DNA of 57,746 nucleotides from an uncultured Clostridia bacterium (lineage in GTDB: Bacteria; Bacillota; Thermosediminibacteria; Thermosediminibacterales; Tepidanaerobacteraceae), in assembly GCA_964520055.1 (NCBI GenBank), contig CAZFME010000003.1, positions 1 to 57,746 of the forward strand, in the 5' to 3' direction. Of this stretch, positions 15,471 to 44,409 are shown piece after piece. Within the stretch, counting starts at the first letter, position 1; each line of letters starts with the position of its first letter. A program made the position numbers and the translations under genes. The notes under the pieces are model-generated. The model was not told where the DNA came from. It ran no database searches and saw only the letters and a list, made by a program, of their open reading frames with translations.

Positions 15471-15668
15471 CCTCATCTCGATAAGAGTTGAGGTAGAGGA
15501 GCGATAGATCAAGAGTAGATTTGTGGAGGCATGGGAGCCGATTAAGCAAATTAAAAGGGGTCATCGCCGAAGCATAGTTTCCCCCAAGAAGCTATGCTGG
15601 GCTTATATCAAATAGATATAAGACTGTCACCGTAAGTCATATTCGGTGAAGCGCTACTTCATAAGAGA
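15471..15668 (+). promoter_or_regulatory. Lysine riboswitch (L-box)
   Basis: Conserved L-box blocks in order: GGTAGAGGAGCGA, AAGAGTA, GGAG, GGGGTCATCGCCGAAGC, TGCTGG, ACTGTCAC, GGTGAAGCGCTAC. Located upstream of lysA. Confidence 0.9.
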
Positions 15669-15688: not shown

Positions 15689-15722
15689 AAACAACCGGCA
15701 AATATCCCCGGTTGTTTTTGCT
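15689..15722 (+). terminator. Riboswitch expression-platform terminator
   Basis: AAACAACCGG (15689-15698) / CCGGTTGTTT (15708-15717) followed by TTGCTTT. TATTTGCC (15673-15680) can pair with GGCAAATA (15697-15704) as an antiterminator. Confidence 0.85.
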
Positions 15723-15747
15723 TTACATAAATGAAAGGAGAAACGGT

Positions 15748-17082
15748 ATGTTTTATGGAACCAGTAGAATTAATAAATATAACCATTTGGAAATAGGTGG
15801 ATGTGACACGGTAGAACTTGTAAAAGAATTCGGCACTCCTCTATATGTAATGGATGAGAATCATATCCGTGAAAATTGCCGTTCATATACAAACAGTCTG
15901 CGAAATATGCATGAAAACAGCGAAGTGATTTATGCTGCAAAGGCTTTCTTGACTATGGAAATGTGCAAATTAATACAGGAAGAAGGTCTATGTCTTGACG
16001 TGGTATCGGGAGGCGAGCTTTATCTGGCCATAAAATCCGGTTTTCCTGCGAAAAGGATATATTTTCATGGCAATAACAAGTCTTATACTGAATTGGAAAT
16101 GGCTGTTGAATATGGTGTTGGACGCATTGTAGTAGATAATTTTTTCGAACTTGAATTGTTAAGAGATTTAACTAAAAAATATCAAGGTAAAAAAATAAAG
16201 ATATTATTGCGTTTGACACCAGGTATTGAGGCTCATACGCACGATTATATAAAAACCGGCCAACTTGATTCCAAATTTGGATTTGTAATGGAAAACGGGC
16301 ATGCGTTTATGGCTGTAGAAAATGCCTTAAGCATAAAAAGCTTAAAGCTCATGGGCTTTCATTGCCACATCGGTTCTCAAATATTTGAAGAGCAGCCTTT
16401 TAAAGACACAGCAGAAGTTATGATTCAATTCGCCAAAAATATAAAAGAAAAATATGGTTTTAAAACCAAAGAAGTAAACTTTGGAGGTGGATTTGGTATC
16501 AAATATACAGAAAAAGATAAACCATTGACCGTGAAACATTACGTTACAGTTTTAGTCGAATCTGTCAAGGAATCTTGCAAAAAACACGGCCTACCCATTC
16601 CAAAGATATTGATAGAACCAGGCAGAGCCATTATAGGCGAAGCCGGTACAACCCTGTATACAATTGGTGCAATAAAAAACATCCCCGGTGTTAGAAAATA
16701 TGTCAGCGTAGATGGCGGAATGAGCGATAATATAAGACCGGCATTATATGGAGCAAAGTATTCAGCCGTTGTTGCAAATAAAGTTAATGGCTCAAAGAAA
16801 GAAACGGTGTCGATTGCAGGAAAGTGCTGTGAATCCGGGGATATGTTAATCTGGGATATTGACCTACCCAAAATCGCACCAGGTGATATTTTAGCTGTTT
16901 TTAGCACAGGAGCTTATCACTATTCTATGGCCAGTAACTATAATATGATACCAAAACCTGCGGTGGTCTTTGTAAAAAGCAAAACCGCCCGGCTTGTTGT
17001 TCGTCGACAAACCTACGAAGATTTGTTGGGCAATGAAGTATTTTTACCACATTCCAAGCATATTTCTTTGGCAAACTTCTAG
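15748..17082 (+). CDS. lysA: Diaminopimelate decarboxylase
   Basis: Orn/DAP/Arg decarboxylase fold motifs (YAAKAF PLP-Lys, HCHIGSQ, GGGFGI, CESGD). The track start 15712 lies inside the terminator. ATG 15748 follows GGAGAAA. Confidence 0.95.
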   Translation: MFYGTSRINKYNHLEIGGCDTVELVKEFGTPLYVMDENHIRENCRSYTNSLRNMHENSEVIYAAKAFLTMEMCKLIQEEGLCLDVVSGGELYLAIKSGFPAKRIYFHGNNKSYTELEMAVEYGVGRIVVDNFFELELLRDLTKKYQGKKIKILLRLTPGIEAHTHDYIKTGQLDSKFGFVMENGHAFMAVENALSIKSLKLMGFHCHIGSQIFEEQPFKDTAEVMIQFAKNIKEKYGFKTKEVNFGGGFGIKYTEKDKPLTVKHYVTVLVESVKESCKKHGLPIPKILIEPGRAIIGEAGTTLYTIGAIKNIPGVRKYVSVDGGMSDNIRPALYGAKYSAVVANKVNGSKKETVSIAGKCCESGDMLIWDIDLPKIAPGDILAVFSTGAYHYSMASNYNMIPKPAVVFVKSKTARLVVRRQTYEDLLGNEVFLPHSKHISLANF

Positions 17083-17882: not shown

Positions 17883-18866
17883 GTGAAGAGTCATGTAGTT
17901 ATGAGTGGTATGAGACCAACCGGTCGCCTGCACATGGGAAATATGATGGGAGCGCTGACAAACTGGGTAAAATTACAAAATGAGTATGATTGTTTTTTTG
18001 TTGTCGTAGACTGGCATGCACTCACCACTGGATATGAAAACACTCAGGACATAAAGGAGAACATCCGACAAATGGTTATCGATTGGATAAGCGTCGGCCT
18101 TGATCCGGAAAAATGTAATATTTTTGTACAATCCCATGTGAAACAACATGCTGAATTACATCTTTTGCTTTCAATGATAACACCGTTATCATGGCTGGAA
18201 AGATGCCCCACTTACAAAGAGCAATTAAAGCAACTGGAAAGTAAGGAGATTAATACCTATGGCTTTCTCGGATACCCTGTTCTTATGGCAACTGACATAC
18301 TGATTTATAAGGCAGATAAAGTACCTGTAGGCAAAGATCAAGAGGCACATATTGAGCTATCCCGGGAAATTGCTCGAAGATTTAACTATATTTATAAGCC
18401 GGTATTTCCTGAACCCAAGGCTCTTTATACTGAATTTTTGGTTTTACCCGGTATTGACGGAAGAAAAATGAGCAAAAGTTACGATAATTATATTGAAATA
18501 TCAGCAGGCCCTGAAATAATAAAGCAAAAAGTTCGAATGATGATTACCGATCCTGCAAGAATCAGAAAGAATGATCCCGGTCATCCCAATATTTGTAATG
18601 TATATGCCTTTTATAAAGTATTTGATGAACAAGACAATATCCAGGAACTAAAAGAAGTTTGCCAAAAAGGTCAAATAGGATGTGTAGGATGTAAAAAAAA
18701 GCTGGCTTCTTTAATAATTGATAAAATGCGGCCAATACACTTGAAAAGAAAAGAATTGGAACAGAATCCTACAATCATAGATGATATTTTAGATAATGGT
18801 GCAAAACGAGCACGTTTAGTTGCCGAAAAAACTTTAGAAGAGGTCAGGGAAGCAATGAAAATTTAG
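17883..18866 (+). CDS. trpS: Tryptophan--tRNA ligase
   Basis: Class I signatures (GMRPTGRLHMGN HIGH-like, KMSKS) and TrpRS length (327 aa). GTG start after GGAGGA. Confidence 0.95.
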   Translation: MKSHVVMSGMRPTGRLHMGNMMGALTNWVKLQNEYDCFFVVVDWHALTTGYENTQDIKENIRQMVIDWISVGLDPEKCNIFVQSHVKQHAELHLLLSMITPLSWLERCPTYKEQLKQLESKEINTYGFLGYPVLMATDILIYKADKVPVGKDQEAHIELSREIARRFNYIYKPVFPEPKALYTEFLVLPGIDGRKMSKSYDNYIEISAGPEIIKQKVRMMITDPARIRKNDPGHPNICNVYAFYKVFDEQDNIQELKEVCQKGQIGCVGCKKKLASLIIDKMRPIHLKRKELEQNPTIIDDILDNGAKRARLVAEKTLEEVREAMKI

Positions 18867-18883
18867 GTAAAGGTGAAGAAACC

Positions 18884-19621
18884 GTGACATTAAATGTTAG
18901 TCTAGACGCTTTTGAAGGTCCTTTTGACCTTCTGTTTCACCTAATTGAAAAAAACCAAATAGATATTTATGATATACCTATAGCAGAGCTGACAGAGCAG
19001 TACTTAAACTATATTGAAGAAATCAGTGAAAATGAATTGGATTTAGCCAGTGAATTTCTAGTTATGGCTGCTACCCTATTAAGTATCAAATCAAAAATGT
19101 TGTTGCCTTCCAATCAGAACCAAGAAATGCAATTAGAACTAGTAGCAACAGACGATGATGACCCTAGAAGTGACTTGATGGTCAAACTACTGGAATATAA
19201 AAAATATAAAGAGATTTCTTATGTGTTAAAAACTAAAGAACAGGAGCAGGAGTTGATTTTTAAAAAGCCTCCCGAGGATTTATCCCATATGTGGGTAGAG
19301 GATTTTCCCTTATCTGAAATAACTTTTATAGACTTGAAGATTTCTTTTAAATCAGTAATGAACACAAATAAACCGGAAGAAAAGATTTCCAAAATCGCAA
19401 AAGAGCTTATGCCATTATCTCGCAAAATAACAGAAGTCTATAGAAAACTAAAGCAATTAAAATCAAGAATATTATTTAGTAAGTTATATGACCATGAAAC
19501 GCCAAAGCTCGAAATAATAACAACTTTTTTAGCTGTTTTAGAACTTATAAAAATGAATCGAGTTTTTGCAGATCAAGAAAAGCCATTCGGGGATATTGTT
19601 TTAGTATGTAGGGAGGTTTAG
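18884..19621 (+). CDS. scpA: Segregation and condensation protein A
   Basis: LDAFEGPFDLLFHLIEKNQIDIYDIPIAELTEQYL kleisin N-terminus. Followed by scpB. Confidence 0.93.
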   Translation: MTLNVSLDAFEGPFDLLFHLIEKNQIDIYDIPIAELTEQYLNYIEEISENELDLASEFLVMAATLLSIKSKMLLPSNQNQEMQLELVATDDDDPRSDLMVKLLEYKKYKEISYVLKTKEQEQELIFKKPPEDLSHMWVEDFPLSEITFIDLKISFKSVMNTNKPEEKISKIAKELMPLSRKITEVYRKLKQLKSRILFSKLYDHETPKLEIITTFLAVLELIKMNRVFADQEKPFGDIVLVCREV

Positions 19622-19627
19622 TTTCAA

Positions 19628-20140
19628 ATGGATTTGCAAAAGGTTATGGGCATCATTGAGGGGATATTGTTTATTTCAGGCAATCCGATAAACATTGATG
19701 AAATATCGAATACACTGGATATAACAAATGAACAGGTTTTAAAATGTATCGAACAATTACAACATGATTACGATAAACCGTGTCATGGTTTAATGATTTC
19801 AAAAGTTGGTCAGAGAATACGGATGACAACAAAACCGGAAATATTTCCTTATATCGAAACAATATTTAAACCTAAGATAAAAGCACAGCTTTCCAAAGCC
19901 GCCTTAGAAACTTTGGCAATTATCATGTTTAAACAACCCGTAACACGAGCCGAAATTGAAGAGATAAGAGGTGTAAATTCAGAGAGAGCACTTAGCACTC
20001 TTCAAGCAAAAAACCTTGTTTATGAAACAGGTCGCCTGAATGTACCGGGCCGACCTATACTTTATTCTATAACTGAACAATGCATGGATTATTTTGGATT
20101 GGAGAGTATAGAAGATATCCCTATTGAAAATAAAAAATGA
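19628..20140 (+). CDS. scpB: Segregation and condensation protein B
   Basis: IEGILFISGNP...LETLAIIMFKQPVTRAEIEEIRGV winged-helix pair typical of ScpB. Confidence 0.93.
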   Translation: MDLQKVMGIIEGILFISGNPINIDEISNTLDITNEQVLKCIEQLQHDYDKPCHGLMISKVGQRIRMTTKPEIFPYIETIFKPKIKAQLSKAALETLAIIMFKQPVTRAEIEEIRGVNSERALSTLQAKNLVYETGRLNVPGRPILYSITEQCMDYFGLESIEDIPIENKK

Positions 20141-20194
20141 ATTAATAGCAATTTTTTATCGCAAACTAAAGAGAAAAGGTTTAAGGAGATTAAA

Positions 20195-20887
20195 GTGAAA
20201 TATCTACTTGTTATCCTGGCTTTTTCTCTTTTTATTTTATTACCTGTTAGGGTTAGTATAACTTTATTCAAAAAAAGGGATAATGAATACATACGAATTG
20301 AGATAGATTGTTTTAAGGCATTAAAGATACTTTTTGAAATACCTGAGATGAAATTTATTATTAAGAATTTCATTCCCACATTGAGCTTTAAGTACCAAAT
20401 TAGTAACAAGAATAACAAAGTTTCAAAATCAGAAAAAATAGTCATTTCACCTCTTAGAGACAGATATAAAATAATTATAAATATAATTAAAGCTCTATAT
20501 AAACATATTAATAATCTAAAAAAAATAAGCAGATTTTTATCTAAACACATCAATGTTCTTGACATGAATATTAATATTGCTTTTGGCAGTGAAAATGCGG
20601 CTTTGACGGGGTTTTTAGCCGGCCAGGCATGGAGCATTGTTTATTTTGGTTTAAGCATGCTTTCGTTTTATTTTAACTTCGACAACTCTAATATTAAGGT
20701 AAATGTGACACCGGTTTTTATAAATTATGAACCTATACAAATTGATATTAATTGTATATTTCAACTTAGGATTGGCCATATTATTATTACAAGTTCTATA
20801 GTAGTCTGGTACTGGCTAGTATCTAAACAGAGTTTATTCATAAAAGGAGCGACGAAGCTGTGGATGAACACCCAATCCAGAGTTTAA
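20195..20887 (+). CDS. ytfI: DUF2953 / YtfI-like sporulation membrane protein
   Basis: N-terminal TM segment and FGSENAALTGFLAGQAWSI motif. Overlaps and precedes ytfJ as in other spore formers. Confidence 0.6.
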   Translation: MKYLLVILAFSLFILLPVRVSITLFKKRDNEYIRIEIDCFKALKILFEIPEMKFIIKNFIPTLSFKYQISNKNNKVSKSEKIVISPLRDRYKIIINIIKALYKHINNLKKISRFLSKHINVLDMNINIAFGSENAALTGFLAGQAWSIVYFGLSMLSFYFNFDNSNIKVNVTPVFINYEPIQIDINCIFQLRIGHIIITSSIVVWYWLVSKQSLFIKGATKLWMNTQSRV

Positions 20888-21273
20888 TAAAAACTTCAAT
20901 GGAAAGCATTAAAGAAATGGTTGATGTAAACACTATAGTCGGAGATGCCGTTGAAACTCAAGATGGAAGCATAATAATTCCGGTTTCTCGGGTTTGTTTT
21001 GGTTTTGCTGCCGGAGGAAGCGAATTTGATGCAAAAACTTCAAAAGAAAATGATAAAAGTGAAAAGATAAAGCTACCTTTCGGTGGTGGCAGTGGTGCAG
21101 GGGTCTCAGTTCAACCAGTGGCCTTTATGGTTGTTGGTCAGGGTCAGATAAGGCTTTTATCAATTAATCAAAATACAACCATAGAAAGAGTAATAGATAT
21201 TGCACCACAAATTATTGATCAAATAAACCGTATATTAAAAAATAACAATGGTTCTTTTTACGGTCCTAAATAA
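20860..21273 (+). CDS. ytfJ: GerW/YtfJ family sporulation protein
   Basis: IVGDAVETQDGSIIIPVSRVCFGFAAGGSEF...GGGSGAGVSVQPVAFMVV is the characteristic YtfJ pattern. GTG start. Confidence 0.85.
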   Translation: MDEHPIQSLIKTSMESIKEMVDVNTIVGDAVETQDGSIIIPVSRVCFGFAAGGSEFDAKTSKENDKSEKIKLPFGGGSGAGVSVQPVAFMVVGQGQIRLLSINQNTTIERVIDIAPQIIDQINRILKNNNGSFYGPK

Positions 21274-21402: not shown

Positions 21403-23061
21403 ATGCGAAAAAAAGCAATAATTGCTTTCTTATCTTTATATATAGGTATCACAATATTAGGTTTTGAAGCGAGAGCTGAAAACATACAATTAACAGTCAG
21501 TGCAAAATCTTTTGTTTTAATTGACTTAATAAGCGGTAGGATTCTTTTGGAAAAAAATTCGGAGGAAAAAAGAGCTATGGCAAGTACCACCAAAATAATG
21601 ACTGCAATCATAGCCTTGGAAAAAGGGTATATTAAGTCCCGGGTAAAGGTAAGTCCGAGGGCAGCTTCAGTTGGTGGTTCCTCTTTTCATCTTAGCACAG
21701 GGGAAGTTTTATCTTTGGAAAATATGTTATATGGGCTTTTACTGCCATCAGGTAATGATGCCTCGATAGCTATTGCAGAACACATCGGAGGCACTGAAGA
21801 AAACTTTGTGCATATGATGAATGAAAAAGCTTTAGAGTTGGGAGCATTGAGTACTCATTTTACAAACCCTCACGGCCTTGATAACCCAAAGCACTATACC
21901 ACTGCAAAAGACCTTGCTTTGATAGCAAGATATGCATTAAGTAGTAATAAATTCTGCAATATAGTACAAACTAAAACAAAAGAGATAAAAGATGGAAATT
22001 ACCCTAGGCAAATATTGAACACTAACAGACTATTATGGGAATTTGAAGGCACCAACGGTATTAAAACTGGTTATACTGGAAATGCAGGAAAATGCCTTGT
22101 GGCTTCTGCTGGTAGAAATAATTTGCAATTGCTATCTATAGTTTTGGGTACAGATAATCATTTTTCCGACTCTTTCACACTATTAAATTACGGTTTTGTC
22201 AATTATAAATTAACACCTATAATAAGCAAAAATAAATATTGTACAACTGTATCAGTTCAAAATGGGTGTTATGACAAAGTAGGTTTGATGACAAAGGATG
22301 ATATCAATATTGCATTAAAGGAAAATGAAATTGTCACATTTAATTTGATTATTCCTAAAAAGATTAAGGCCCCTGTTTACAAAGGAGAAAATATAGGAGA
22401 ATTGCAGGTTTATATCAAAAATGATCTAATTTTTTCAAACCCCCTTATTGCAATGAGCGATGTACGAGTTAAAAAATATAATGACATTTTATATAAGATC
22501 TTGAGATTATGGATGAAAGGTAATAGTAGAATAAAGAATGAAAACCTATCAAAAAAGTTAAATTGTGAGAAGGATTTTCGTTTTTTATGGCGAAGTAATA
22601 TAATAAAAGAGCTCATCAATGATGAGGAGGTATATTTAATGACCGATCCATATAAGAAAGGAATGTTTAAAGTTAATCCCTACGCTAAAAAGAAACCCTT
22701 GAAAGGTAATTTAGTTGTGGTGCTAGACGGCAAATACGATAAGAGAGGCTTACAGCTTATTCCACAAGCCTCAAGATGTCTAACTGCCGACGAGGTACAC
22801 GAAATGATTTTAACCGATGAAGATAAAAAACCTGGAGATACGATAAACAAAATAGCGTATATAGGGTTTTTTGCAGTAAAGGAGAGCGCCGTAATTATAG
22901 TAGGGGACAAGGTTATGATCAATGGGCAAGGGATTGGAAAAATTGCAGGATTTGACGAAACCCACATACCAAATCATTACAATATTGTTATATATGGAAA
23001 AGACCGCATTTCCGGAAGTGAAAGAAATCTTGACCTGAATGCTGAGGTTATAATTGGATAA
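21403..23061 (+). CDS. dacB: D-alanyl-D-alanine carboxypeptidase (dacB position) reading through into an unrelated 140-aa module
   Basis: aa 1-385 form a complete PBP5-type enzyme (STTKIMT, SGNDA, KTGY, C-terminal beta domain). The ORF continues in frame for 167 further codons. See the separate entry for 22639-23061. Confidence 0.8.
   Translation: MRKKAIIAFLSLYIGITILGFEARAENIQLTVSAKSFVLIDLISGRILLEKNSEEKRAMASTTKIMTAIIALEKGYIKSRVKVSPRAASVGGSSFHLSTGEVLSLENMLYGLLLPSGNDASIAIAEHIGGTEENFVHMMNEKALELGALSTHFTNPHGLDNPKHYTTAKDLALIARYALSSNKFCNIVQTKTKEIKDGNYPRQILNTNRLLWEFEGTNGIKTGYTGNAGKCLVASAGRNNLQLLSIVLGTDNHFSDSFTLLNYGFVNYKLTPIISKNKYCTTVSVQNGCYDKVGLMTKDDINIALKENEIVTFNLIIPKKIKAPVYKGENIGELQVYIKNDLIFSNPLIAMSDVRVKKYNDILYKILRLWMKGNSRIKNENLSKKLNCEKDFRFLWRSNIIKELINDEEVYLMTDPYKKGMFKVNPYAKKKPLKGNLVVVLDGKYDKRGLQLIPQASRCLTADEVHEMILTDEDKKPGDTINKIAYIGFFAVKESAVIIVGDKVMINGQGIGKIAGFDETHIPNHYNIVIYGKDRISGSERNLDLNAEVIIG
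22639..23061 (+). other. 140-aa module of unknown function with its own SD and ATG, in frame with dacB
   Basis: GAGGAGG (22624-22630), 8 nt, ATG 22639. Sequence MTDPYKKGMFKVNPYAKKKPL...GKIAGFDETHIPNHYNIVIYG. Not part of any PBP5 I know. No stop separates it from dacB. Confidence 0.4.
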
Positions 23062-23095: not shown

Positions 23096-23554
23096 ATGTC
23101 TTTTGAAAGGAAAATACAGGAAATGGGTATTACTTTACCCGAACCACCAAAACCGGTAGCAGCATATGTTCCTGGCGTCAAAGTAGAAAAGTACATTTAC
23201 ACTGCCGGACAAATTCCATTTGTCAATGGAGAATTAAAATATAAAGGCAAAGTTGGCAAAGAAGTATCTGTGAATGATGCTTATGAAGCAGCGAAAATAT
23301 GTGTGTTAAACTGCCTTAGTATAGTAAAATCTTTGGCCGGAAGCCTTGATAATGTTGAAAAAATCGTTAAGGTAGTTGGATTTGTTAATAGTGCCGACGG
23401 TTTCAACCAGCAGCCAAAAGTTATAAATGGAGCTTCAGAACTTTTGGGTCAGATTTTCGGGGATACAGGGGCTCATGCTCGTTCAGCCGTCGGTGTCAAT
23501 CAACTTCCAATGGACGCTACTTGTGAAGTGGAGCTTATAGTAAAATTAAAATAA
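23096..23554 (+). CDS. RidA/YjgF/UK114 family reactive-intermediate (enamine/imine) deaminase-like protein
   Basis: 152 aa with LPEPPKPVAAYVP...AGQIP...HARSAVGVNQLPMDA..VEL, the family hallmark layout. SD AAAGGAGG. Confidence 0.88.
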   Translation: MSFERKIQEMGITLPEPPKPVAAYVPGVKVEKYIYTAGQIPFVNGELKYKGKVGKEVSVNDAYEAAKICVLNCLSIVKSLAGSLDNVEKIVKVVGFVNSADGFNQQPKVINGASELLGQIFGDTGAHARSAVGVNQLPMDATCEVELIVKLK

Positions 23555-23569: not shown

Positions 23570-25036
23570 ATGACTAAATTCGCTAAGAAATTTGAGATGT
23601 ATAAATCTCTTCAAGTCAATACTGCCAATATTTATGCCGATGCACGGAAAGCCGCTGATGAAATAGGTATTCCTACGGAATTACGAGGTAAATTTGGCCT
23701 TACAGGAGCTATTTCAGGTTGTCCCTCTCCTTTAAATAAAAAAATAAGGGGAGCTATGGAAAAAGGTGCCACTGAAGTTATTCCTTTAGCAAAACTCATA
23801 GACGAAATCCGGTGTTTAGTTAAAGATGTTTACGGTGATGAATACGATGCAGCACCGATAAACACATGTGAAGCCGGAATATGGGTCGCTTTTGATGTGC
23901 TGTTCTCACCTCCTATGCAGGGTCGTGGTGACAACTACCAGGCTCGTTATATCATACCTTACGAAAAACACTTACACCACCACGGTGGTTATGGAAGACC
24001 ATTCCCTGGCAGATTTAAGGACATTGTGGCCGACAGAGGTTCTACTGCCGGTGAATTAGGTTTCTATGGCAAAAGACTCAATAACTTAAGTGTCTATATA
24101 GCACCTTTAATCGGAGCCGACTATTCAGTACATGGAATCAAGTATCATCCTGCAATTCAATTGACAAAGGTTGACCCCGAAGCATCAGCCAAGAAGATAA
24201 AGACTATAGCCGAACGCCACGCTTGTACGCTTACAGGTATTACCTCCCTTGCTTATGATACCCCCGGATACGGATATGGAGTAAAAGATAATGATGGAGT
24301 ACCTGTGTTGCAAAAACGCTTGGCAGAGATTGCTAAGAACTTTGATGTACCTTATATAATGGATAACGCATGGGGTGTTCCCTTTATAGGCCATGATATT
24401 TCTAAAAGCGGAGCGGATGTGATCATATACAGCATGGATAAAGCCAGCGAATCTCCAACATCGGGTTTGATAATCGGTAAAGAGGAATATATGGTACCTA
24501 TTCGTAGAGCTCTCGGAATGCATGGTGATAGGTATGGAACAACGGCATCTTACGGAAAAGCAGCTTATGTTACAAATGATCCCGGTAAAGAAGCACTCCT
24601 CGGTATGATTGCAGCATTGAAAGAATTAAAAGATAATCCCGATGACTTTAAAAAACCTGTTGACGATATGTATAATATCGTTAAAGAAGAGTTTGACCAA
24701 ATAGATCCTAAGATAAAGAAAGGCTTAATCATATCCAAATCCTATAACTCTAGAGCAGTTGAAGTTAACTATGAAAACACTTGGAGTGGTAATGAGCTTG
24801 GAGTTCCCATTTTTTCAATTGAAGACATGTATGCTGGAAGCCAGTTAATGCAAACTGGTCTTTCTCAGATGGGTGTGATTCCAACAGTGGCTTATGACGG
24901 TAATATTCTGATTTCACCCGGTCTTGGCACCACTGACGATGATGGTCAGATCATAGAAAGTAACTTTAGATATGCCGTAAAAGCTCAGGTTAAACTTATG
25001 GAGATTATCGCCAAATACAGTGGATATATAGAGTGA
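23570..25036 (+). CDS. SelA-like fold-type I PLP-dependent enzyme (function unknown)
   Basis: IIYSMDKASESPTSGLIIGKEE resembles the SelA/DgaE PLP-lysine block (SGDKLLGGPQAGIIxGKKE). 488 aa. SD AAGGAGGA. Confidence 0.55.
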   Translation: MTKFAKKFEMYKSLQVNTANIYADARKAADEIGIPTELRGKFGLTGAISGCPSPLNKKIRGAMEKGATEVIPLAKLIDEIRCLVKDVYGDEYDAAPINTCEAGIWVAFDVLFSPPMQGRGDNYQARYIIPYEKHLHHHGGYGRPFPGRFKDIVADRGSTAGELGFYGKRLNNLSVYIAPLIGADYSVHGIKYHPAIQLTKVDPEASAKKIKTIAERHACTLTGITSLAYDTPGYGYGVKDNDGVPVLQKRLAEIAKNFDVPYIMDNAWGVPFIGHDISKSGADVIIYSMDKASESPTSGLIIGKEEYMVPIRRALGMHGDRYGTTASYGKAAYVTNDPGKEALLGMIAALKELKDNPDDFKKPVDDMYNIVKEEFDQIDPKIKKGLIISKSYNSRAVEVNYENTWSGNELGVPIFSIEDMYAGSQLMQTGLSQMGVIPTVAYDGNILISPGLGTTDDDGQIIESNFRYAVKAQVKLMEIIAKYSGYIE

Positions 25037-25114: not shown

Positions 25115-26398
25115 ATGGCCAAAGTAGTTGTGATAGGCGGAGGATGGGCTGGCTCAGGGGCTGCTTTATCGGCAAAAAAAGCCGGTGCAGATGTAGTATT
25201 ATTAGAAAGAACGGATATGTTATTGGGGACAGGTCTGGTCGGCGGCATTATGAGAAATAATGGCAGGTATGCTGCTACAGAGGAAATGATAGCTATGGGC
25301 GGAGGTGAACTGTTTCAGGTCACGGACTGTGTAGCAAGACATCGTAATATCGACTTTCCCGGTCACAAACATGCTTCTCTATATGATGTAGCATTAATAG
25401 AGCCAGCTGTAAAAAAAGTTCTAATTGATGCAGGAGTTGAAGTTTATACCGAGAGTCGTGTAAAAGATGTAATAGCTGAAGAGAATAAGATACTAGCCGT
25501 TGTCACTGATAATGGTATAAAATACGAAGCTGATGTTTTTGTGGAATGCACTGGAACCGCTGGACCTCAAGGAAACTGCACCAAGTATGGCAATGGTTGT
25601 GCTATGTGTGTTTATAGATGTCCCAGTTATGGCCCAAGGGTGAGTATTGCAGCCAAAATGGGAGTCAAGGAAATGATAGCCAAAAAAGCCGACGGCACTT
25701 ATGGGGCCATGAGCGGCTCCTGTAAACTTTTCAAGGAGTCTCTTTCAAAGGAAATAATTGATCAATTAAATTCTACCGGTGTAGCGGTTATAGCTGTACC
25801 GGAGCATGCCAAAGAAGGAGCGGAAATCCTTACTAAAAAAGCCTGCCAACAGTACGCCTTGAAAGAATACATAGAAAATGTAATACTACTGGATACTGGA
25901 CATGCAAAATTAATGACACCATTCTTTCCATTAAATAATTTGAGACAAATTCCTGGATTTGAAAATGCACGATATGAAGACCCTTATGCTGGGAACTTAG
26001 GCAACTCCATGAGATATCTGGCCATTTCGCCTAGGGACAACTATTTAAAAACTGAAGGATTGGAAAATCTCTTTTGCGCAGGCGAAAAAGCCGGGCCATT
26101 GGTAGGTCACACAGAAGCTATTTGCACCGGAACATTGGCCGGAGCAAATGCAGTTCGCTGGGTTGCCGATAAGAAACTCATTGAAATTCCCAGAGAACTT
26201 TCCGTCGGAGATGCCATCGCCTATGTCAAGGAACAAATGAAAACCGAAGAGGGTATATCGAAAAAGTATACTTTTTCCGGGTCCGTTTATTTTGAAAGAA
26301 TGAAAAAACAGGGACTATATACAACTGATATAGATGAAATAAAAGATCGTGTCGAAAAGGCTGGGATGACAAACGTGTTTAATCAGAAAGTTGTATAA
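25115..26398 (+). CDS. FAD-dependent oxidoreductase with a Cys-rich insert
   Basis: N-terminal dinucleotide fold VVVIGGGWAGSGAALSAKKAGADVVLLE. Insert CTGTAGPQGNCTKYGNGCAMCVYRCPSYG (6 Cys in 29 aa). 427 aa. Confidence 0.7.
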   Translation: MAKVVVIGGGWAGSGAALSAKKAGADVVLLERTDMLLGTGLVGGIMRNNGRYAATEEMIAMGGGELFQVTDCVARHRNIDFPGHKHASLYDVALIEPAVKKVLIDAGVEVYTESRVKDVIAEENKILAVVTDNGIKYEADVFVECTGTAGPQGNCTKYGNGCAMCVYRCPSYGPRVSIAAKMGVKEMIAKKADGTYGAMSGSCKLFKESLSKEIIDQLNSTGVAVIAVPEHAKEGAEILTKKACQQYALKEYIENVILLDTGHAKLMTPFFPLNNLRQIPGFENARYEDPYAGNLGNSMRYLAISPRDNYLKTEGLENLFCAGEKAGPLVGHTEAICTGTLAGANAVRWVADKKLIEIPRELSVGDAIAYVKEQMKTEEGISKKYTFSGSVYFERMKKQGLYTTDIDEIKDRVEKAGMTNVFNQKVV

Positions 26399-26882: not shown

Positions 26883-27647
26883 ATGTTACATGAAAAACAG
26901 CGAATATTATTTTTTATTTTAAAGGCTATCGATAGCTCACAAGTGCCTGTCGGTTCTGGTTATTTGCGTAACAGCTTACAAAGGCAGGGGTTTGATATCA
27001 GTGAAGCAACTGTCGGTAGAATGTTAAGACAGCTAGACATCAAAGAATATACTGAAAAAATCGGTTTTAAAGGCAGAATACTAACTCCAATTGGCAAAAT
27101 AAAATTAGAAGAACTCGAGCGTGAAAATACAATTAACCATTATGGAAAGGAATTATTAAATGTAATAAGAGTAACAGGTAAACAAGAACTTCTTGATGCA
27201 TTGATTGCAAGAAAGGCCATTGAAAGTCAGCTTGCCAAATTAGCCGCTATATATATAACCGATGAGGAAATTCATAAAATGAAACAGGTCATCAAAAGAC
27301 AACAGATGCACGTCAATAAAGGTATTTCTATAGCCGAAGATGATGTGGAATTCCATAAAATCATAGCTAAGGCAGCAAGAAACAGAATTCTGGATGCTGC
27401 TATGGATTTAATAAGACAGCATGGACAGCTTTCACCAATGCTTGAGTATATAAGAAAAGAAGTGAAGAGTAGAGTTCTTTTGGACCATAAGAATATCTAT
27501 AAAGCTATTGCCTCTAGGAAGCCGGAACTGGCCGAAGAAGCAATGGTACGCCATATAGAAAAACTTGAAAGGGACGTAAAAAAGTATTGGGAAATTGTTT
27601 ATGAAAAAGACAGCAGCCTTGATGTTGTAAGAGAATTAAGGATGTAA
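26883..27647 (+). CDS. Transcriptional regulator, winged-helix N-domain plus FCD (FadR C-terminal type) ligand domain
   Basis: N-terminus SEATVGRMLRQLD...KGRILTPIG (wHTH). C-terminus LIARKAIESQLAKLAA...DDVEFHKIIAKAARNRIL (FCD-like helices). Preceded by a 430-nt AT-rich spacer. Confidence 0.7.
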   Translation: MLHEKQRILFFILKAIDSSQVPVGSGYLRNSLQRQGFDISEATVGRMLRQLDIKEYTEKIGFKGRILTPIGKIKLEELERENTINHYGKELLNVIRVTGKQELLDALIARKAIESQLAKLAAIYITDEEIHKMKQVIKRQQMHVNKGISIAEDDVEFHKIIAKAARNRILDAAMDLIRQHGQLSPMLEYIRKEVKSRVLLDHKNIYKAIASRKPELAEEAMVRHIEKLERDVKKYWEIVYEKDSSLDVVRELRM

Positions 27648-27955: not shown

Positions 27956-29773
27956 ATGGAAAAGAAGAAAATCTTGTTAGCACCTCTTGACCCTGTTCAT
28001 GATATCGGCCTTAAAATGATTAAGAGGGGATTGGAACAGAAAGGCCATGAAGCTTTACTTATGCCTCCGGATTATTCACAAGAAGAAATAATCAAATCCA
28101 TTATAGATAATAATGCAGATATTGTTTTAGTGAGCCGTACTCTTGGATACGGCGTGGCAGAAATTTTGGGGAGATTTATTGATTTGGCTGAAGCGGCTGA
28201 CATAAGAGATAAGGTGAAAATCGGTATAGGTGGAATGGCGATACGACCTGAACTCGCCGCAGAATTAGGTTTTGATGCCGGATTCGGACCTGGTACTACC
28301 GTAGCAGAAGCAGTAGCCTTTGTGGAAGGAAGAGATTACATTCCAGAAGAAACTAGAGGTAAAAAAAGCAAGAAAGACATTACCGAAGGATATAATTATA
28401 TTTTTCACAATAAAAATATTGAAAAACTGTTGGATTCAATAGTCGACGAAATTCTGGATTACGTAAACAATAAAACGACTACTGCCATTCAGAGGGCAGA
28501 GATACGCAGACAAATACTGGAGAGTAATAATGAATTGGAAAGACAAAAACTCCGTGCGGACTATTCAAAGCTATGTGATGATGTAATTAAAGCTTTTTAT
28601 GAATCAGGCAAATACCGCGAAAAAACCCGTCCACTGACTGATGACGAAGTAAATGCTCTTAATCGATATGTAGATGAAGTGAACTTGCGAATGAATCCTT
28701 TACAGTTGCAGCATACTGACAAAAATCCTGTAGTCTTTATTCAATATGGAACAGGATGTCCATTCATGGATATTGCTCATATTAAATCATGTGAAGCTTG
28801 GGGCGCAGATGGAGCAGTGCACTTTGATCCATCTTGGGGTGCACGAACAGAAGGTTTTTTAGAGGGGTATATAACTCATGAGGAAGACGGTTCTGTTATA
28901 ACTTATGAGAACCTGAAAAGTATCCGGACATCCTTGATACCCAATACCCTTTGGCAAGTTAGAGCTCACCGGGGACTGAACACTCCGGAAACGGTCTTAT
29001 TGGCCGGAAAAATTGGGGCAGATTTAACCAAAATAAATATTGCCTATGGTTCATTAGGGGGAGGTACCGATCCTGAACGTCTTACTGTAGATGCAGTAGA
29101 GGCTATCAAGTATGCAGCTGAATTTCATATGCCCTTTGATGTAGTGACCAATGAGGAACTTTGCGGCGTCCCCGCTTATAAAGCTTTTGCAGGAATGCTG
29201 ATAGTATCAAAACTTGGTTTGCGGCTTGGAGGCAAACCTATTCTCCAGCCCTTATTTTGTTACTCACCGGAGGTCATGATTAGCGGCCAAATGGAAAATA
29301 ACTATGTAGATTTTAATGCGGCAAAAATATATTGCCTTAGAAATATTGTCAACGCTCCTATATGGTGTGGTGCTCCCATCGGATTCTTAACCCAAACCGA
29401 AGATCGTGTGCAATCATCACTGATGACGGCACTTCATGCATCTCTTGCTTCTTCACTGGGTGTTGATGGTATTTCCATAGCTTCCTCCGATGAAGCTTTT
29501 TCCAAAGGACCTATAACCGCTCCCGCCAGAATTGATACTTTAAGAGCAACCCAGGCATCTTTTAGATTTTTTGGGCAATCCAATATTGTTCCCACCGATA
29601 ATGCTCAAAAATGGGCTGAAGAAATAGAAGATGGGATAGAAAAGGTACTGGAGTCAGTAGTAAAAAACGGGAATTTTATCGATGCACTATATCAAGGCAT
29701 ACTTGGAAGCAGGGAAGACGGTGCATATCCTGGAAGAGCAGGCAGAAATTCGGTAATAAAACAACTCCATTAA
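27956..29773 (+). CDS. Cobalamin-binding domain fused N-terminally to an aminomutase-like large domain (605 aa)
   Basis: aa 1-130: LDPVHDIG (MetH-like VHDIG), VSRTL (SxL), IGIGGMA (GG), ELGFDAGFGPGT. C-terminal tail GILGSREDGAYPGRAGRNSV resembles the tails of KamD/OraE-type barrels (from memory). Confidence 0.7.
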   Translation: MEKKKILLAPLDPVHDIGLKMIKRGLEQKGHEALLMPPDYSQEEIIKSIIDNNADIVLVSRTLGYGVAEILGRFIDLAEAADIRDKVKIGIGGMAIRPELAAELGFDAGFGPGTTVAEAVAFVEGRDYIPEETRGKKSKKDITEGYNYIFHNKNIEKLLDSIVDEILDYVNNKTTTAIQRAEIRRQILESNNELERQKLRADYSKLCDDVIKAFYESGKYREKTRPLTDDEVNALNRYVDEVNLRMNPLQLQHTDKNPVVFIQYGTGCPFMDIAHIKSCEAWGADGAVHFDPSWGARTEGFLEGYITHEEDGSVITYENLKSIRTSLIPNTLWQVRAHRGLNTPETVLLAGKIGADLTKINIAYGSLGGGTDPERLTVDAVEAIKYAAEFHMPFDVVTNEELCGVPAYKAFAGMLIVSKLGLRLGGKPILQPLFCYSPEVMISGQMENNYVDFNAAKIYCLRNIVNAPIWCGAPIGFLTQTEDRVQSSLMTALHASLASSLGVDGISIASSDEAFSKGPITAPARIDTLRATQASFRFFGQSNIVPTDNAQKWAEEIEDGIEKVLESVVKNGNFIDALYQGILGSREDGAYPGRAGRNSVIKQLH

Positions 29774-30925: not shown

Positions 30926-31621
30926 ATGGAAACTGTGGCTATTATAGGTACAGGCCGCATGGGCAGCCTTATAGCCCGTAAAATATACTCCCATTATAAT
31001 ATGATTTTAATAGATAAAGACTTGAGACAATGCGGCCTATTGGCAAAAGAGACAGCTGGGTTAGCTACTTCTGAGTATTCTGCCCTATCACTTTCCGACT
31101 ACATTATTATAGCTCTACCGGCTACTGTGATTCCAGAAGTTATACAAAAAATAAAATCTTTTGTTGTAAAAGAACACATACTCATAAATATTTCGACAGA
31201 TACGGAAAAACCGGTGTTTGAATCTCTAAAAGGCTTATGTAAGCTAACCGCCGCAAAGATTATAGGGCATGCTCAACACATGGCTACCACCGATGAATTA
31301 CCGCTTATTATTATAGACGGAGAGGACCCGGATACATCTAATAAAACAGCAAATATTTTTGCAAAACTGGGCACCGTGTGTTTTGGTGATGAAAAAACGG
31401 TAAAAAACATCAACAATATAGCCAGTGAAGAGGGTATTAAAGCTGCTTTAAGTATTAAAAAAAGACTTGAAGAAACTGATGTTCCATCAGAATATATAAG
31501 TTTTGCAATTAGAAATGTAGCCTGTGGTACCATGAATGCATACGCATTAGGCGATGGGGGGCCTTTTGCACAAAAAATAATAAAAAAACTGAAAAAGAGC
31601 GGGAAAACTGATTCACTTTAG
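30926..31621 (+). CDS. ProC-like NAD(P)-binding Rossmann oxidoreductase (231 aa)
   Basis: VAIIGTGRMGSLIARKI dinucleotide motif and IIALPATVIPEV, as in pyrroline-5-carboxylate reductase / F420-type NADP oxidoreductase N-domains. SD GGAGG. Confidence 0.6.
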   Translation: METVAIIGTGRMGSLIARKIYSHYNMILIDKDLRQCGLLAKETAGLATSEYSALSLSDYIIIALPATVIPEVIQKIKSFVVKEHILINISTDTEKPVFESLKGLCKLTAAKIIGHAQHMATTDELPLIIIDGEDPDTSNKTANIFAKLGTVCFGDEKTVKNINNIASEEGIKAALSIKKRLEETDVPSEYISFAIRNVACGTMNAYALGDGGPFAQKIIKKLKKSGKTDSL

Positions 31622-31831: not shown

Positions 31832-32548
31832 TTGTTGCAAATGCGGTTGCAAAAATATTTATCCAGGGCCGGTGTTGCCTCACGACGAAAAAGTGAAGAT
31901 TTAATTCTTCAAGGTAGGGTTAAGGTTAATGGGAAAGTTGTCAATAAACTAGGAGCAAAAGTTGATCCTGATGAGGACCGGATAGAGGTTGACGGCAAAA
32001 TCCGCCAAATAAAAAAGCATTATATATATATAATCATGAACAAGCCTAAAGGAATCCTCACAACAGTAAAAGACCAATTTGGAAGGCCAACTGTAATTGA
32101 TCTGCTAAAAGGCGTGAATGAAAGGGTTTTTCCGGTCGGGCGCTTGGATAAAGATACAGAAGGACTTTTATTGTTAACAAATGATGGAGAGGTGACTTAT
32201 AAACTTACTCATCCAAAATACGAAATAGCAAAAGCTTATGTAGCCCAAATAAGGGGAGTTGTGAGTAATGAAGATATAAAAACTTTAGAACAGGGGGTGA
32301 TTCTTGAAGATGGGATCACTTCCCCGGCTAAGGTTAAAATACTAAAAAACTTGCATGACTCAACAATAATTGAAATAAAAATCCATGAAGGAAGAAATAG
32401 ACAGATTAGACGAATGTGTTATGCTATATGTCATCCTGTTATATATTTACAAAGAACAAGAATAGGAAAACTTTCATTAAAGGATTTAAAAATCGGTAAG
32501 TGGAGATATTTAAATCCAAAGGAAATAAAGTATATAAGAAGTCTTTAA
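31832..32548 (+). CDS. rluB: 23S rRNA pseudouridine synthase, RluB/RsuA family
   Basis: S4 domain (RLQKYLSRAGVASRRKSEDLI) plus the catalytic GRLDKDTEGLLLLTNDG motif. True start may be TTG 31835 or ATG 31841. Confidence 0.9.
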   Translation: MLQMRLQKYLSRAGVASRRKSEDLILQGRVKVNGKVVNKLGAKVDPDEDRIEVDGKIRQIKKHYIYIIMNKPKGILTTVKDQFGRPTVIDLLKGVNERVFPVGRLDKDTEGLLLLTNDGEVTYKLTHPKYEIAKAYVAQIRGVVSNEDIKTLEQGVILEDGITSPAKVKILKNLHDSTIIEIKIHEGRNRQIRRMCYAICHPVIYLQRTRIGKLSLKDLKIGKWRYLNPKEIKYIRSL

Positions 32549-33196: not shown

Positions 33197-34030
33197 GTGA
33201 AGAATTTGGAACTCTGGTTTTCAGAATACCAAACAAAAAACGTTAAATTATCATTTAGAGTAAAGGATGTTCTTTACACAAAGCAAAGTGAGTATCAATA
33301 TATATCTGTTTTTGAAACAGAAGATTTCGGAAGGATTTTAGCATTAGATGACGTAGTAATGCTCACTACAAAAGATGAATTTGTCTATCATGAAATGATT
33401 TCCCATGTCCCCTTATTGACACACGGCAATGTATCAAGGGCTCTGGTTATAGGCGGTGGCGACGGAGGAACCGTTAGAGAGCTTTTAAAACACCCCATAA
33501 AGGAAGTAAATTTAGTAGAAATTGACCAGGAAGTCATAGAAGCATCAAAGAAATACTTCCCTTCTGTAAGCTCCGGTTTATCCGATCCCCGAGTAAAAAT
33601 ATTTTTTGAAGACGGAATTGAATTCATTAAAAAGAATAAAGGTTATGATGTAATAATAATAGACTCTCCAGATCCCATAGGTCCCGCCGTAGGATTGTTT
33701 TCCGGTGAGTTTTATAAAAATGTTTTCGAGGCATTGAATGAAAATGGAATTATGGTTGCCCAGACAGAAACGCCTATCTTATTTGGCGATTTGATAAAAA
33801 GGCTTTATAAGGATATGTCATCGGTTTTTCCTTATACAAATTTATATTCAGCGGTTATACCTACGTATCCCGGTGCTTTTTGGACTTTTACCATGGGATC
33901 AAAAACCATAAATCCTATTTCACGGGAAATCAGTGCTACACCGGTTCTTAAAACCAAATATTATATCAGAGAACTGCATAGAAGTTATTTTATACTACCT
34001 CCTTTTGTAAAAGACCTAATTTCTGAATAG
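33197..34030 (+). CDS. speE: Spermidine synthase (polyamine aminopropyltransferase)
   Basis: LWFSE..., GGGDGGTVRE and DSPDPIGPA motifs. SD AGGGGAG (33191-33197) favours TTG 33206 as the start. Confidence 0.95.
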   Translation: MKNLELWFSEYQTKNVKLSFRVKDVLYTKQSEYQYISVFETEDFGRILALDDVVMLTTKDEFVYHEMISHVPLLTHGNVSRALVIGGGDGGTVRELLKHPIKEVNLVEIDQEVIEASKKYFPSVSSGLSDPRVKIFFEDGIEFIKKNKGYDVIIIDSPDPIGPAVGLFSGEFYKNVFEALNENGIMVAQTETPILFGDLIKRLYKDMSSVFPYTNLYSAVIPTYPGAFWTFTMGSKTINPISREISATPVLKTKYYIRELHRSYFILPPFVKDLISE

Positions 34031-34042
34031 AGGAGAGTAAAT

Positions 34043-34906
34043 TTGAACATTTTTGATCATTTGTATAACCAAGATAGATTTCTCGAAGCGAAACATGCTT
34101 ACAGCAATACTAAAATTGTTATCATAGGTGTGCCCATGGATTTCACGGTGAGTTTCCGGCCTGGCGCACGATTTGGTCCTAAAAAAATACGTGAAGCTTC
34201 CTATGGGTTGGAGAATTATAGTGTTTATGCTGATGATTCGCTTGAAAACAAAAGATTTTTCGATGCCGGAGATGTGGACATCCCCTTCGGTAACGTTGAA
34301 AAAAGTCTTGATATTATAGGTGATGTTGCAAAAAAATTTTTGGATGACGGCAAAATCCCTCTATTTTTAGGGGGAGAACACCTTATAAGTTATCCTATAA
34401 TAAAAGAAGTCGTAGAAAATTATCCAGATCTTGTTATAGTTCATTTTGATGCCCATGCAGATTTAAGAGATAGTTATTTAGGAGAGAAACTATCTCATGC
34501 TACTGTCTTGCGAAGGATTTCGGAACATATTAAAGATAAGCATATTTATCAATTTGGTATAAGGTCTGGCATAGAAGAAGAGTTTTTATATGCAAAACAA
34601 CATACTCATATGTATCCTTTAGAAGTTAAAACTCCTTTTTTAAAAGCCCTTCAAGCTTTAAAGAATCGACCCATATATATAACATTAGATATTGATGTGG
34701 TAGATCCGGCTTTTGCTCCAGGTACCGGTACCCCTGAGCCGGGAGGATGTAGTGCTCAGGAAATATTAGAAGTTGTATCTAATTTTAAAGAGTTAAATAT
34801 TGTAGGATTTGATTTGGTAGAAGTTTCACCCGCCAATGACTTATCTGAAAGAACTTCACTTTTAGCAGCTAAAATATTACGAGAATTATTAATTGTGTTA
34901 GGATAA
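34043..34906 (+). CDS. speB: Agmatinase
   Basis: Ureohydrolase Mn-binding motifs HFDAHADLR, DIDVVDPAFAPGTGTPEPGG and GFDLVEVSP. Confidence 0.93.
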   Translation: MNIFDHLYNQDRFLEAKHAYSNTKIVIIGVPMDFTVSFRPGARFGPKKIREASYGLENYSVYADDSLENKRFFDAGDVDIPFGNVEKSLDIIGDVAKKFLDDGKIPLFLGGEHLISYPIIKEVVENYPDLVIVHFDAHADLRDSYLGEKLSHATVLRRISEHIKDKHIYQFGIRSGIEEEFLYAKQHTHMYPLEVKTPFLKALQALKNRPIYITLDIDVVDPAFAPGTGTPEPGGCSAQEILEVVSNFKELNIVGFDLVEVSPANDLSERTSLLAAKILRELLIVLG

Positions 34907-44240: not shown

Positions 44241-44317
44241 GGGCCCATAGCTCAGTTGGTTAGAGCAACCGGCTCATAACCGGTTGGTCCTAGGTTCGAG
44301 TCCTAGTGGGCCCACCA
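44241..44317 (+). tRNA. tRNA with CAT anticodon (Met, or Ile2 if lysidine-modified)
   Basis: Cloverleaf: acceptor GGGCCCA/TGGGCCC, anticodon arm CCGGC-TCATAAC-CGG context, GGTTCGAGTCC T-loop, encoded CCA. Confidence 0.9.
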
Positions 44318-44323
44318 TTTTTT

Positions 44324-44399
44324 GCCGACGTAGCTCAGTTGGTAGAGCAGCTGATTTGTAATCAGCAGGTCGCGGGTTCGAGTCCCATCGTCGGCTCCA
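44324..44399 (+). tRNA. tRNA-Thr (TGT)
   Basis: Acceptor GCCGACG/CGTCGGC, anticodon stem GCTGA/TCAGC with loop TTTGTAA, GGTTCGAGTCC T-loop, CCA. Confidence 0.92.
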
Positions 44400-44409
44400 A
44401 AATAGTTTT

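Follow-up and report, generated by a model that had tools for sequence, protein, structure and literature searches.

To our knowledge, only about a dozen isomerase and eliminase reactions that depend on adenosylcobalamin (AdoCbl) are known, and just two of these belong to aminomutases that use B12 together with pyridoxal phosphate (PLP). In lysine 5,6-aminomutase (5,6-LAM, KamDE), the PLP imine is formed by Lys144 of the Rossmann domain, and ornithine 4,5-aminomutase (OAM, OraSE) uses Lys629 likewise (PMC3958899). In 5,6-LAM, the pyridine nitrogen and the phenolic oxygen are contacted by Ser238 and Asn299, respectively, the ring is stacked against Tyr263, and the phosphate is bound by Arg184, Arg268, Ser189 and the backbone of residues 187–189 (PMC3958899); this residue numbering fits the A. 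noterae KamD and KamE sequences. The subject of the present analysis is a protein of 605 amino acids (aa) encoded in a stretch of 57,746 nt (hereafter, the window) of contig CAZFME010000003.1, assembly GCA_964520055.1, from an uncultured Clostridia bacterium (Tepidanaerobacteraceae). With a probability of roughly 0.7, we read this protein as the large subunit of a radical isomerase that depends on AdoCbl and belongs to the KamDE/OraSE lineage as a permuted sister branch.

The open reading frame (ORF) was intact and lay, together with its features, where a first-pass annotation had placed it (Table 1). The only Pfam domain found was the B12-binding domain PF02310, which matched aa 13–120 with 58.7 bits versus a cut-off of 32.1. 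The best NCBIfam match of the N-terminal part was KamE (NF052385, E = 1.1e-14), as was the best PDB match (8t0v_C; E = 1.6e-13 with phmmer and 1.6e-18 with the family profile). These were followed by OraE, whose Rossmann domain aligned with aa 13–122 (E = 6.7e-10), and then by corrinoid proteins, GlmS and methylmalonyl-CoA mutase (MCM). The protein failed the equivalog models of KamE (NF052385, 54.7 bits versus a cut-off of 280) and OraE (NF040743, 36.9 versus 800) and gave no match to the KamD equivalog NF052384; authentic KamD and KamE scored 917 and 400 on their own models.

When the family was aligned with authentic sequences of KamE and OraE, obtained from Fusobacterium vincentii and Acetoanaerobium noterae, His15-Asp-Ile-Gly18 corresponded to the H-x-x-G of KamE (TDAHTVG) and OraE (EDEHSVG). 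Pro13 occupied the canonical Asp position of DxHxxG and Asp12 stood one residue earlier (−3 from His), which agrees with the shifted motif described in the first-pass annotation. Conservation was counted over 84 non-identical relatives: D12-P13-V14-H15-D16, K20, R61 and G92-G93 were invariant, and S60 was found in 83. The cobalamin hallmarks recognized earlier (LDPVHDIG, VSRTL and IGIGGMA) were thus supported by the Pfam score above the cut-off and by the retention of H15, G18, S60 and G92-G93 in 83–84 relatives; S60 lies in VSRTL, the KamE counterpart of which is VSQTV. The end of the domain, ELGFDAGFGPGT, aligned with ELGYDAGFGPG(T/K/R) of KamE and KQGVDAGFGRGS of OraE, in agreement with the likeness described for this segment at first. 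In the AlphaFold2 (AF2) model, the Rossmann fold begins at residue 5; a search of the 605-aa protein against Pfam gave no match to the B12-binding_2 cap domain (PF02607). His15 is presumed to be the lower cobalamin ligand.

No Pfam, NCBIfam or PDB sequence match was obtained for aa 136–605, either with the single sequence or with a 30-sequence profile. The AF2 model of the 605-aa protein, built from a 30-sequence alignment (predicted local distance difference test (pLDDT) 84.8, predicted template modelling score (pTM) 0.80), comprised a Rossmann domain (1–125), helices (153–245), an eight-stranded beta/alpha barrel (approximately 259–540), and C-terminal helices with a tail. Foldseek against PDB placed KamD first (1xrs_A, E = 5e-15; 8t0v_A, E = 3e-14; template modelling score of 0.61–0.64 normalised by the target; 527 aligned columns, target of 516 residues), followed by OraE (4.6e-10), GlmE (7e-10, rank five) and then IcmF (5e-8) and MCM. 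The comparison with KamD by hhalign gave a probability of 85% (E = 5.8e-6) over KamD residues 151–283, with the motifs GADxxV, GA(R/T)TEGF and T(Y/Q)EN(L/F) common to the family and KamD. Thus, the earlier description of the C-terminal domain as aminomutase-like held, and no profile placed the barrel in a non-mutase family.

The global hhalign alignment was collinear between aa 136–605 of the family and KamD 1–503, and the tail GILGSREDGAYPGRAGRNSV paired with the KamD tail GIFGGVKRPKDGGKGLNGVV, as the resemblance to aminomutase C-termini noted at first had suggested. Invariant in the tail were G581, G584, G589, Y591-P592-G593-R594 and G596. Because the collinearity starts at residue 136, the region of about 110 aa formerly taken for a helical linker is helical, as stated, but corresponds to the N-terminal helical region of KamD and is not a linker. 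The invariant polar residues of the barrel include H289, D291, R297, R336, H338, R339, K359, N361, Y364, R375, D395, N399, E401, E439, R484, D512 and E513, and the barrel is presumed to be the substrate and radical chamber. Judged from the fold and the profile alignment, aa 136–605 are a full-length, very remote KamD-like module.

A word-indexed protein search with the 605-aa protein returned more than 1000 proteins; among the best 120 listed, nearly all had about 600 aa and nearly all had the B12 domain as the sole annotation. When the GTDB species were scanned with one genome each, at least 151 genomes, mostly of anaerobic Firmicutes, encoded the family, and the best 80 of the 151 species matches were 59–92% identical over the full length; the presence of such full-length relatives in so many species argues that the architecture is not due to chance. 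The hosts include Tepidanaerobacter and its relatives, Thermovorax, Fervidicola, Thermovenabulum, Peptococcaceae, Desulfofundulus, Desulfovirgula, three Sporomusa species, Pelosinus, Heliobacterium, Heliorestis and Halothermothrix, as well as single metagenome-assembled genomes (MAGs) labelled Sumerlaeota and Candidatus Adiutrix. When 1.84 billion representatives (50% clusters) were searched exhaustively by HMMER with the C-terminal profile, 71 matches were obtained, namely, one full-length representative and fragments, all belonging to the family itself. The family therefore forms a single tight cluster at 50% identity with no HMMER-detectable relatives, and no sequence-intermediate bridge from it to KamD could be built from this search. 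Thus, N-terminal fusions of this kind are common, but no curated family in Pfam or NCBIfam covers the 605-aa fusion, and no paper on the family was found in the literature on the reactivase, DUF6917, KamD/OraE homologues and the host genera; PMC3958899, the one paper that came up, is a general review of aminomutases.

Members bear generic or incorrect public names, such as "cobalamin B12-binding domain-containing protein", "D-lysine 5,6-aminomutase beta subunit", "L-beta-lysine ..." and "methylmalonyl-CoA mutase cobalamin-binding chain", and a neighbouring gene is named "reactivase subunit KamB". Such names (for example, those of P0030, P0037, P0205 and P0240) appear to have been transferred on the basis of a partial similarity of domains, and the names lysine 5,6-aminomutase beta subunit, methylmalonyl-CoA mutase B12 chain and KamB are flagged here as a systematic misannotation.

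Gene neighbourhoods were examined in 85 loci, within 10 kb of the B12 gene. In 81 of them, a gene for a 77-aa protein was located immediately upstream of the B12 gene or overlapped its start; in the window, its ORF stops 17 nt before the B12 gene. The invariant residues of this protein are D10, D13, E15, G53, R55, R57, R59, Y61 and W71. Its match to Pfam OAM_dimer was below the cut-off (E = 0.0013), and hhalign aligned it with KamE 36–77 (probability of 22%) and OraE 516–581. The AF2 model (pLDDT 83) had a beta-alpha-beta-beta layout, and its best PDB folds were OraE 3kow_B (root mean square deviation of 1.9 A over 54 aa) and KamE 8t0v/9q1a, with E-values of 0.06–0.2. In comparison with OraS by hhalign, the protein was unrelated (probability of 0.2%). 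Since three independent weak signals concur, the 77-aa protein is taken as the detached KamE N-terminal/OraE dimerisation domain, which it appears to be; the dimerisation domain is not within the 605-aa protein itself.

Downstream of the B12 gene, a 360-aa P-loop protein passed the NCBIfam model reactivase_KamB (NF052386, 237.9 bits, cut-off of 210) and was 30% identical over 346 aa to authentic Fusobacterium vincentii KamB (E = 1e-37), the reference from a kce-kdd-kamA-kamB-kamC-kamD-kamE operon. It contained the Walker A motif GTAKNTGKTT and is presumed to be a cofactor-exchange or reactivation partner.

Table 1. Features of the B12 operon in the window (positions within the 57,746-nt stretch)
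Feature	Position	Strand	Evidence
DUF6917 protein, ~140 aa	22639..23061	+	PF21891 E 2.2e-47
RidA/YjgF imine/enamine deaminase	23096..23554	+	PF14588 E 1.4e-23, PF01042 E 2.9e-16
Fold-type-I PLP enzyme (PLP488), 488 aa, most tightly linked partner	23570..25036	+	80/85 loci
GidA-like FAD oxidoreductase	25115..26398	+	Pfam GIDA E 9e-37
GntR-family regulator, FCD effector domain	26883..27647	+	Pfam FCD E 8e-22, winged helix
Small subunit candidate, 77 aa	27705..27938	+	Synteny, weak OAM_dimer/KamE/OraE likeness
Large subunit	27956-29773	+	Intact ORF, 605 aa
Large subunit aa 1-125, cobalamin-binding Rossmann domain, invariant DPVHDIG	27956..28330	+	PF02310, KamE/OraE alignment
Large subunit aa 136-250, helical region corresponding to the N-terminal helical part of KamD	28361..28705	+	AF2, Foldseek, hhalign
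Large subunit aa 253-545, (beta/alpha)8 barrel, remote KamD/OraE homologue	28712..29590	+	AF2, Foldseek, hhalign
Large subunit aa 548-605, C-terminal helices and Gly-rich KamD-like tail	29597..29773	+	hhalign
KamB-like P-loop protein, 360 aa	29818..30900	+	NCBIfam NF052386, KamB identity, Walker A
NAD(P)-binding oxidoreductase (ProC/F420_oxidored-like)	30926..31621	+	PF03807 E 2.2e-9

The composition of the operon was assessed by BLASTP of the window neighbours against all ORFs of the 85 loci. The B12 protein was found in 85 loci, the small ORF in 81 and the 488-aa PLP enzyme (PLP488) in 80; the KamB-like protein, the flavin adenine dinucleotide (FAD) oxidoreductase and the DUF6917 protein were each found in 64, GntR/FCD in 56, RidA in 53 and a 466-aa transporter in 31. 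The usual gene order was DUF6917, RidA, PLP488, FAD, (transporter), (GntR), small, B12 and KamB-like, with the GntR/FCD gene mostly immediately upstream of the small gene. A minimal operon, GntR-small-B12-PLP488, was present in 12 loci (L026–L031, L045, L047, L049, L057, L058 and L075), which had no KamB-like, RidA, FAD or DUF6917 genes and kept PLP488 as the only enzyme partner. The genome of at least one of them (L027) has the full cluster on another contig (L077), and the B12 gene was duplicated in several genomes (for example, L027/L077, L041/L050, L036/L085 and L076/L078).

In PLP488, the motif YSMDK with Lys291 (SxxK) was invariant, and its weak matches to SelA/DgaE-type and other fold-type-I enzymes were restricted to the surroundings of the PLP site. 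The 488-aa protein was also tested as KamC because of its equal length and was rejected by comparison, KamC being a MutS2-like ATPase. The RidA homologue retained the Arg of the ARSAVGV..LP (ARSxVxV..LP) motif, which we take to be the catalytic Arg of RidA. The four-Cys motif CxKYGNGCxMCxxRCP was conserved in the FAD oxidoreductase. In about 16 loci, a paralogue of the latter adjoined a PyrK-like FAD/NAD-binding protein; in L012 (13.6–15.9 kb), for example, a GidA-like paralogue of approximately 60% identity was located beside a PyrK-like protein (PRK05802-like, E = 1.7e-28) downstream of the cluster, and the pair also occurred in L013, L016, L018, L019, L024, L025 and L072. This arrangement suggests a two-subunit NAD(P)-linked oxidoreductase. 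The DUF6917, PLP488 and FAD proteins were compared by hhalign with OrtA/OrtB/Ord, Kce and Kdd and showed no similarity; therefore, any analogy with these would be functional only.

In the window, a dacB-like ORF reads without a stop into the DUF6917 gene, producing an ORF of 552 aa at 21403–23061 (+), the D-Ala-D-Ala carboxypeptidase part of which has a signal peptide and S11 and PBP5_C domains. Relatives have the dacB-like (382 aa) and DUF6917 (140 aa) proteins as two genes, and the internal ATG at 22639 is preceded by GAGGAGG. The long ORF is probably a lost stop codon or a chance read-through and not a functional fusion. A link of the operon to this carboxypeptidase was rejected, since the latter belongs to the scpAB-ytfJ-dacB backbone and was adjacent in only 15 of the 85 loci.

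The ProC/F420_oxidored-like gene followed the KamB-like gene in just 14 of the 85 loci, mainly in Tepidanaerobacteraceae, and is a lineage-specific addition. In three loci (L043, 13096–18776; L044; L070), a Dpp/Opp-type ATP-binding cassette (ABC) system replaced the 466-aa secondary transporter; in L043, it directly followed the KamB-like gene and consisted of a family-5 binding protein, two permeases and two ATPases. This replacement hints at a peptide-like or amino-acid-derived substrate. A four-subunit 2-oxoacid:ferredoxin oxidoreductase located after the cluster in a Dethiobacter MAG (L005, 12958–16049) fits a 2-oxo acid end product. The cluster contained no kamA, kamC, kdd, kce, ord or ortAB, and no methyltransferase or reductive-activase genes were found in its conserved part. 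An Rfam search detected no cobalamin riboswitch near the operon, and scanning for promoters and terminators gave nothing informative.

The B12 operon is preceded by trpS, scpA, scpB, DUF2953, ytfJ and the dacB-like gene (17883–21273) and followed by a gene of an rluB-type pseudouridine synthase (31832–32548). Surrounded by this housekeeping and sporulation backbone, the operon therefore has the appearance of a catabolic island that was inserted. A lysine riboswitch (RF00168, 124.7 bits) at 15486–15664 (+) precedes a gene of the Orn/DAP/Arg decarboxylase family (15712–17082, +), probably lysA; this riboswitch, 12 kb from the operon, appears unrelated to it. A polyamine pair, the spermidine synthase gene speE (364.7 bits) followed by an arginase/agmatinase-family gene, was located downstream at 33197–34906 (+), and no connection to the operon was found. 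Four tRNA genes were clustered at 44241–44583 (+), and a fifth was at 52052–52124 (+).

We read the enzyme as part of an amino-acid catabolic pathway. By analogy, amino-group migration would be its most likely chemistry, since all four modules are nearest to aminomutases. His15 would bind cobalamin in the base-off/His-on mode, homolysis of the AdoCbl Co-C bond would take place over the barrel, and the adenosyl radical would start a 1,2-rearrangement of an amino-acid-type substrate, perhaps a diamino acid, a D-amino acid or an acid derived from peptides. The product or its derivative may then be deaminated via a 2-imino acid by the PLP enzyme (elimination) and/or the FAD enzyme (oxidation), and RidA would hydrolyse the 2-imino acid to a 2-oxo acid and ammonia. 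The KamB-like protein would help to load the cofactor or to exchange it when damaged.

A number of observations weigh against the placement of the protein in the KamDE/OraSE lineage or against the chemistry proposed for it. Since the barrel is undetectable by HMMER, its homology to KamD rests on the fold and one hhalign match of 85%. The matches of the small ORF are each non-significant (E = 0.0013, 0.001 and 0.06), all relatives have the Asp of DxHxxG one residue away from its canonical place, and no KamC-type (MutS2-like) ATPase was found in the window cluster or within 10 kb in the 85 loci. The biochemistry of the members is deduced from sequences and models, and the order of the pathway steps and the substrate from gene content. 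The PLP site provides the most specific points of this kind. In the KamE/OraE alignment, the eight-residue insert MNMKGYAG of KamE, which bears Lys144 (His+11), is absent from the family. With moderate confidence, hhalign mapped Arg184 to Asp291, Ser238 to Arg339 and Arg268 to Gly369 and showed the 187–189 loop to be deleted. As most of the barrel ligands are not conserved in this alignment, PLP-assisted amino migration can be proposed only tentatively.

The sole PLP ligand retained in the hhalign mapping was the stacking Tyr263 of KamD, present as the invariant Tyr364; Asn299 was not reliably aligned, with Asn399 as a possible counterpart. It should be noted that the PLP-site mapping rests on a profile alignment. 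The first-pass annotation had sought a PLP lysine in GLKMIKRG, and this proposal failed: both K20 and K23 were rejected on alignment and conservation, since K23, aligned by HMMER with the OraE lysine, varies among the relatives (K38/R20/A11/N11 of 84) and the Lys144 loop is missing. With this loop and most of the barrel ligands gone, any PLP cannot be held as in KamDE/OraSE. As far as the sequences indicate, the family has not kept, as such, the PLP site that the known aminomutases use. The invariant Lys359 is located at the C-terminal end of barrel strand 4 (AF2 model, 84 relatives) and may, speculatively, be regarded as the best candidate for a PLP lysine supplied by the barrel. Within the AdoCbl-isomerase reading, we give chemistry with PLP and chemistry without it roughly equal odds.

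These features bear on an alternative that we consider possible and rather doubtful, namely, an AdoCbl enzyme of the same lineage that works without PLP, either a carbon-skeleton mutase similar to glutamate mutase or an eliminase similar to ethanolamine ammonia-lyase, with an amino or dicarboxylic acid as the substrate and all PLP chemistry left to the separate 488-aa enzyme. The loss of the KamE/OraE lysine loop, the replacement or deletion of four of the five mapped barrel ligands, the GlmE fold score close to that of OraE (7e-10 vs 4.6e-10) and the dedicated PLP enzyme as the tightest partner all favour it. Glutamate mutase grips its substrate with an arginine claw, and invariant Arg residues (R297, R336, R339, R375 and R484) are found at the barrel mouth here. 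However, the nearest relatives of every module are the PLP-dependent aminomutases rather than GlmS/GlmE or MCM, the Tyr that stacks on PLP is retained, the invariant Lys359 occupies a catalytic barrel position, and the alignment of the PLP ligands is only moderately reliable. Overall, there is an even chance that the protein represents a third AdoCbl aminomutase-type enzyme with a reaction outside the known B12 isomerisations and without the Rossmann lysine-PLP latch; such an enzyme would use PLP via Lys359 of the barrel or work PLP-free alongside the obligatory PLP488 partner.

The VHDIG core has the form found in MetH and corrinoid proteins; corrinoid proteins (1y80, MtgC and MtbC) are among the weaker matches, and DHPS-type barrels appear far down the Foldseek list, which would speak for a corrinoid methyltransferase or another non-radical cobalamin protein that combines a B12 domain with a TIM barrel, as MetH and the MtaBC/MttBC systems do. 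Such a protein is improbable here, as the B12-binding_2 cap is missing, both domains match radical aminomutases best, a reactivase-type partner is conserved, and the cluster is devoid of methyltransferase and reductive-activase genes. Still less probable is an ordinary but fused lysine 5,6-aminomutase or ornithine 4,5-aminomutase: the database names "D-lysine 5,6-aminomutase beta subunit" and "reactivase subunit KamB" and the KamB-like score above the NCBIfam cut-off point in this direction, whereas the KamE and OraE equivalog scores (54.7 vs 280 and 36.9 vs 800) and the lack of a match to the KamD model, the non-conserved PLP lysine and phosphate ligands, the absence of kamA, kamC, kdd, kce, ord and ortAB together with unrelated accessory genes, and the different layout of authentic operons contradict it.

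The permuted isomerase would be a strongly conserved third branch, present in at least 151 species, with identities of 59% or more across several Firmicutes classes, and equipped with its own small subunit, a chaperone-like partner and a fixed set of pathway enzymes. The branch is a natural test case for the question of whether radical control requires the lysine-PLP "lock" between the barrel and the Rossmann domain. The family points to an unassigned amino-acid fermentation route in acetogens, syntrophs and heliobacteria and, if the reading is true, would represent, with RidA, the FAD enzyme and DUF6917, a new anaerobic pathway of amino-acid degradation in spore-forming Firmicutes.

Among the described systems, KamDE (1xrs, 8t0v, 9q1a) is the nearest in its Rossmann domain, with ELG(F/Y)DAGFGPG common to both, and has the top barrel fold in KamD, which is collinear including the N-terminal helices and the tail and shares Tyr263; a KamB homologue is encoded nearby, and the 77-aa protein resembles the KamE N-terminus. 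Unlike in KamDE, the counterpart of the KamE N-domain appears to be encoded here as a protein of its own (77 aa), and the Rossmann domain precedes the KamD-like module in one polypeptide. The Asp of DxHxxG is replaced by Pro, the Lys144beta loop is missing, and Arg184, Ser189, Ser238 and Arg268 are not conserved in the profile alignment; moreover, KamC is absent from the cluster, the operon is wholly different, and the barrels have no similarity at the HMMER level. OraSE (3kow–3kp1) likewise has the barrel and the B12 domain in one fused polypeptide and a small partner subunit, and the best fold match of the small ORF is the OraE dimerisation domain. However, OraE has the order barrel-dimerisation-Rossmann, whereas the present order is Rossmann-barrel with a separate dimerisation-like domain; the small ORF is unrelated to OraS, and Lys629 has no conserved equivalent.

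GlmS/GlmE (1cb7, 1ccw) is also an AdoCbl isomerase that combines a TIM barrel with a Rossmann domain, GlmE ranks fifth among the fold matches (E = 7e-10), and the enzyme works without PLP, a property that would be consistent with the lack of the PLP anchor here. In contrast, the GlmS match is weaker than that of KamE (E = 5e-5 vs 4e-14), the Glm subunits are separate, glutamate mutase has no KamB-type partner, and no methylaspartase or related genes are present here. The corrinoid proteins of methyltransferases (MetH, MtaC, MttC) differ in their cap domain (PF02607), absent here, and in the methyltransferase genes that the cluster lacks. In IcmF (4xc6), the B12 domain is N-terminal in a fused mutase (match at chain residues 50–146); IcmF differs in having an inserted G-protein chaperone (G3E GTPase) domain, with no GTPase domain here, and an acyl-CoA-binding barrel, and its match is weak (E = 0.005 for the B12 domain and 5e-8 for the fold; NF045497, E = 0.099). 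The N-terminal position alone is therefore not unique. Of the inverted and fused domain order pointed out at first, the permutation relative to KamDE and OraSE stands, while its supposed lack of precedent does not, given IcmF. Thus, the novelty of this family is the combination of a permuted KamE/KamD arrangement, a detached small domain, a lost PLP latch and a dedicated uncharacterised operon.

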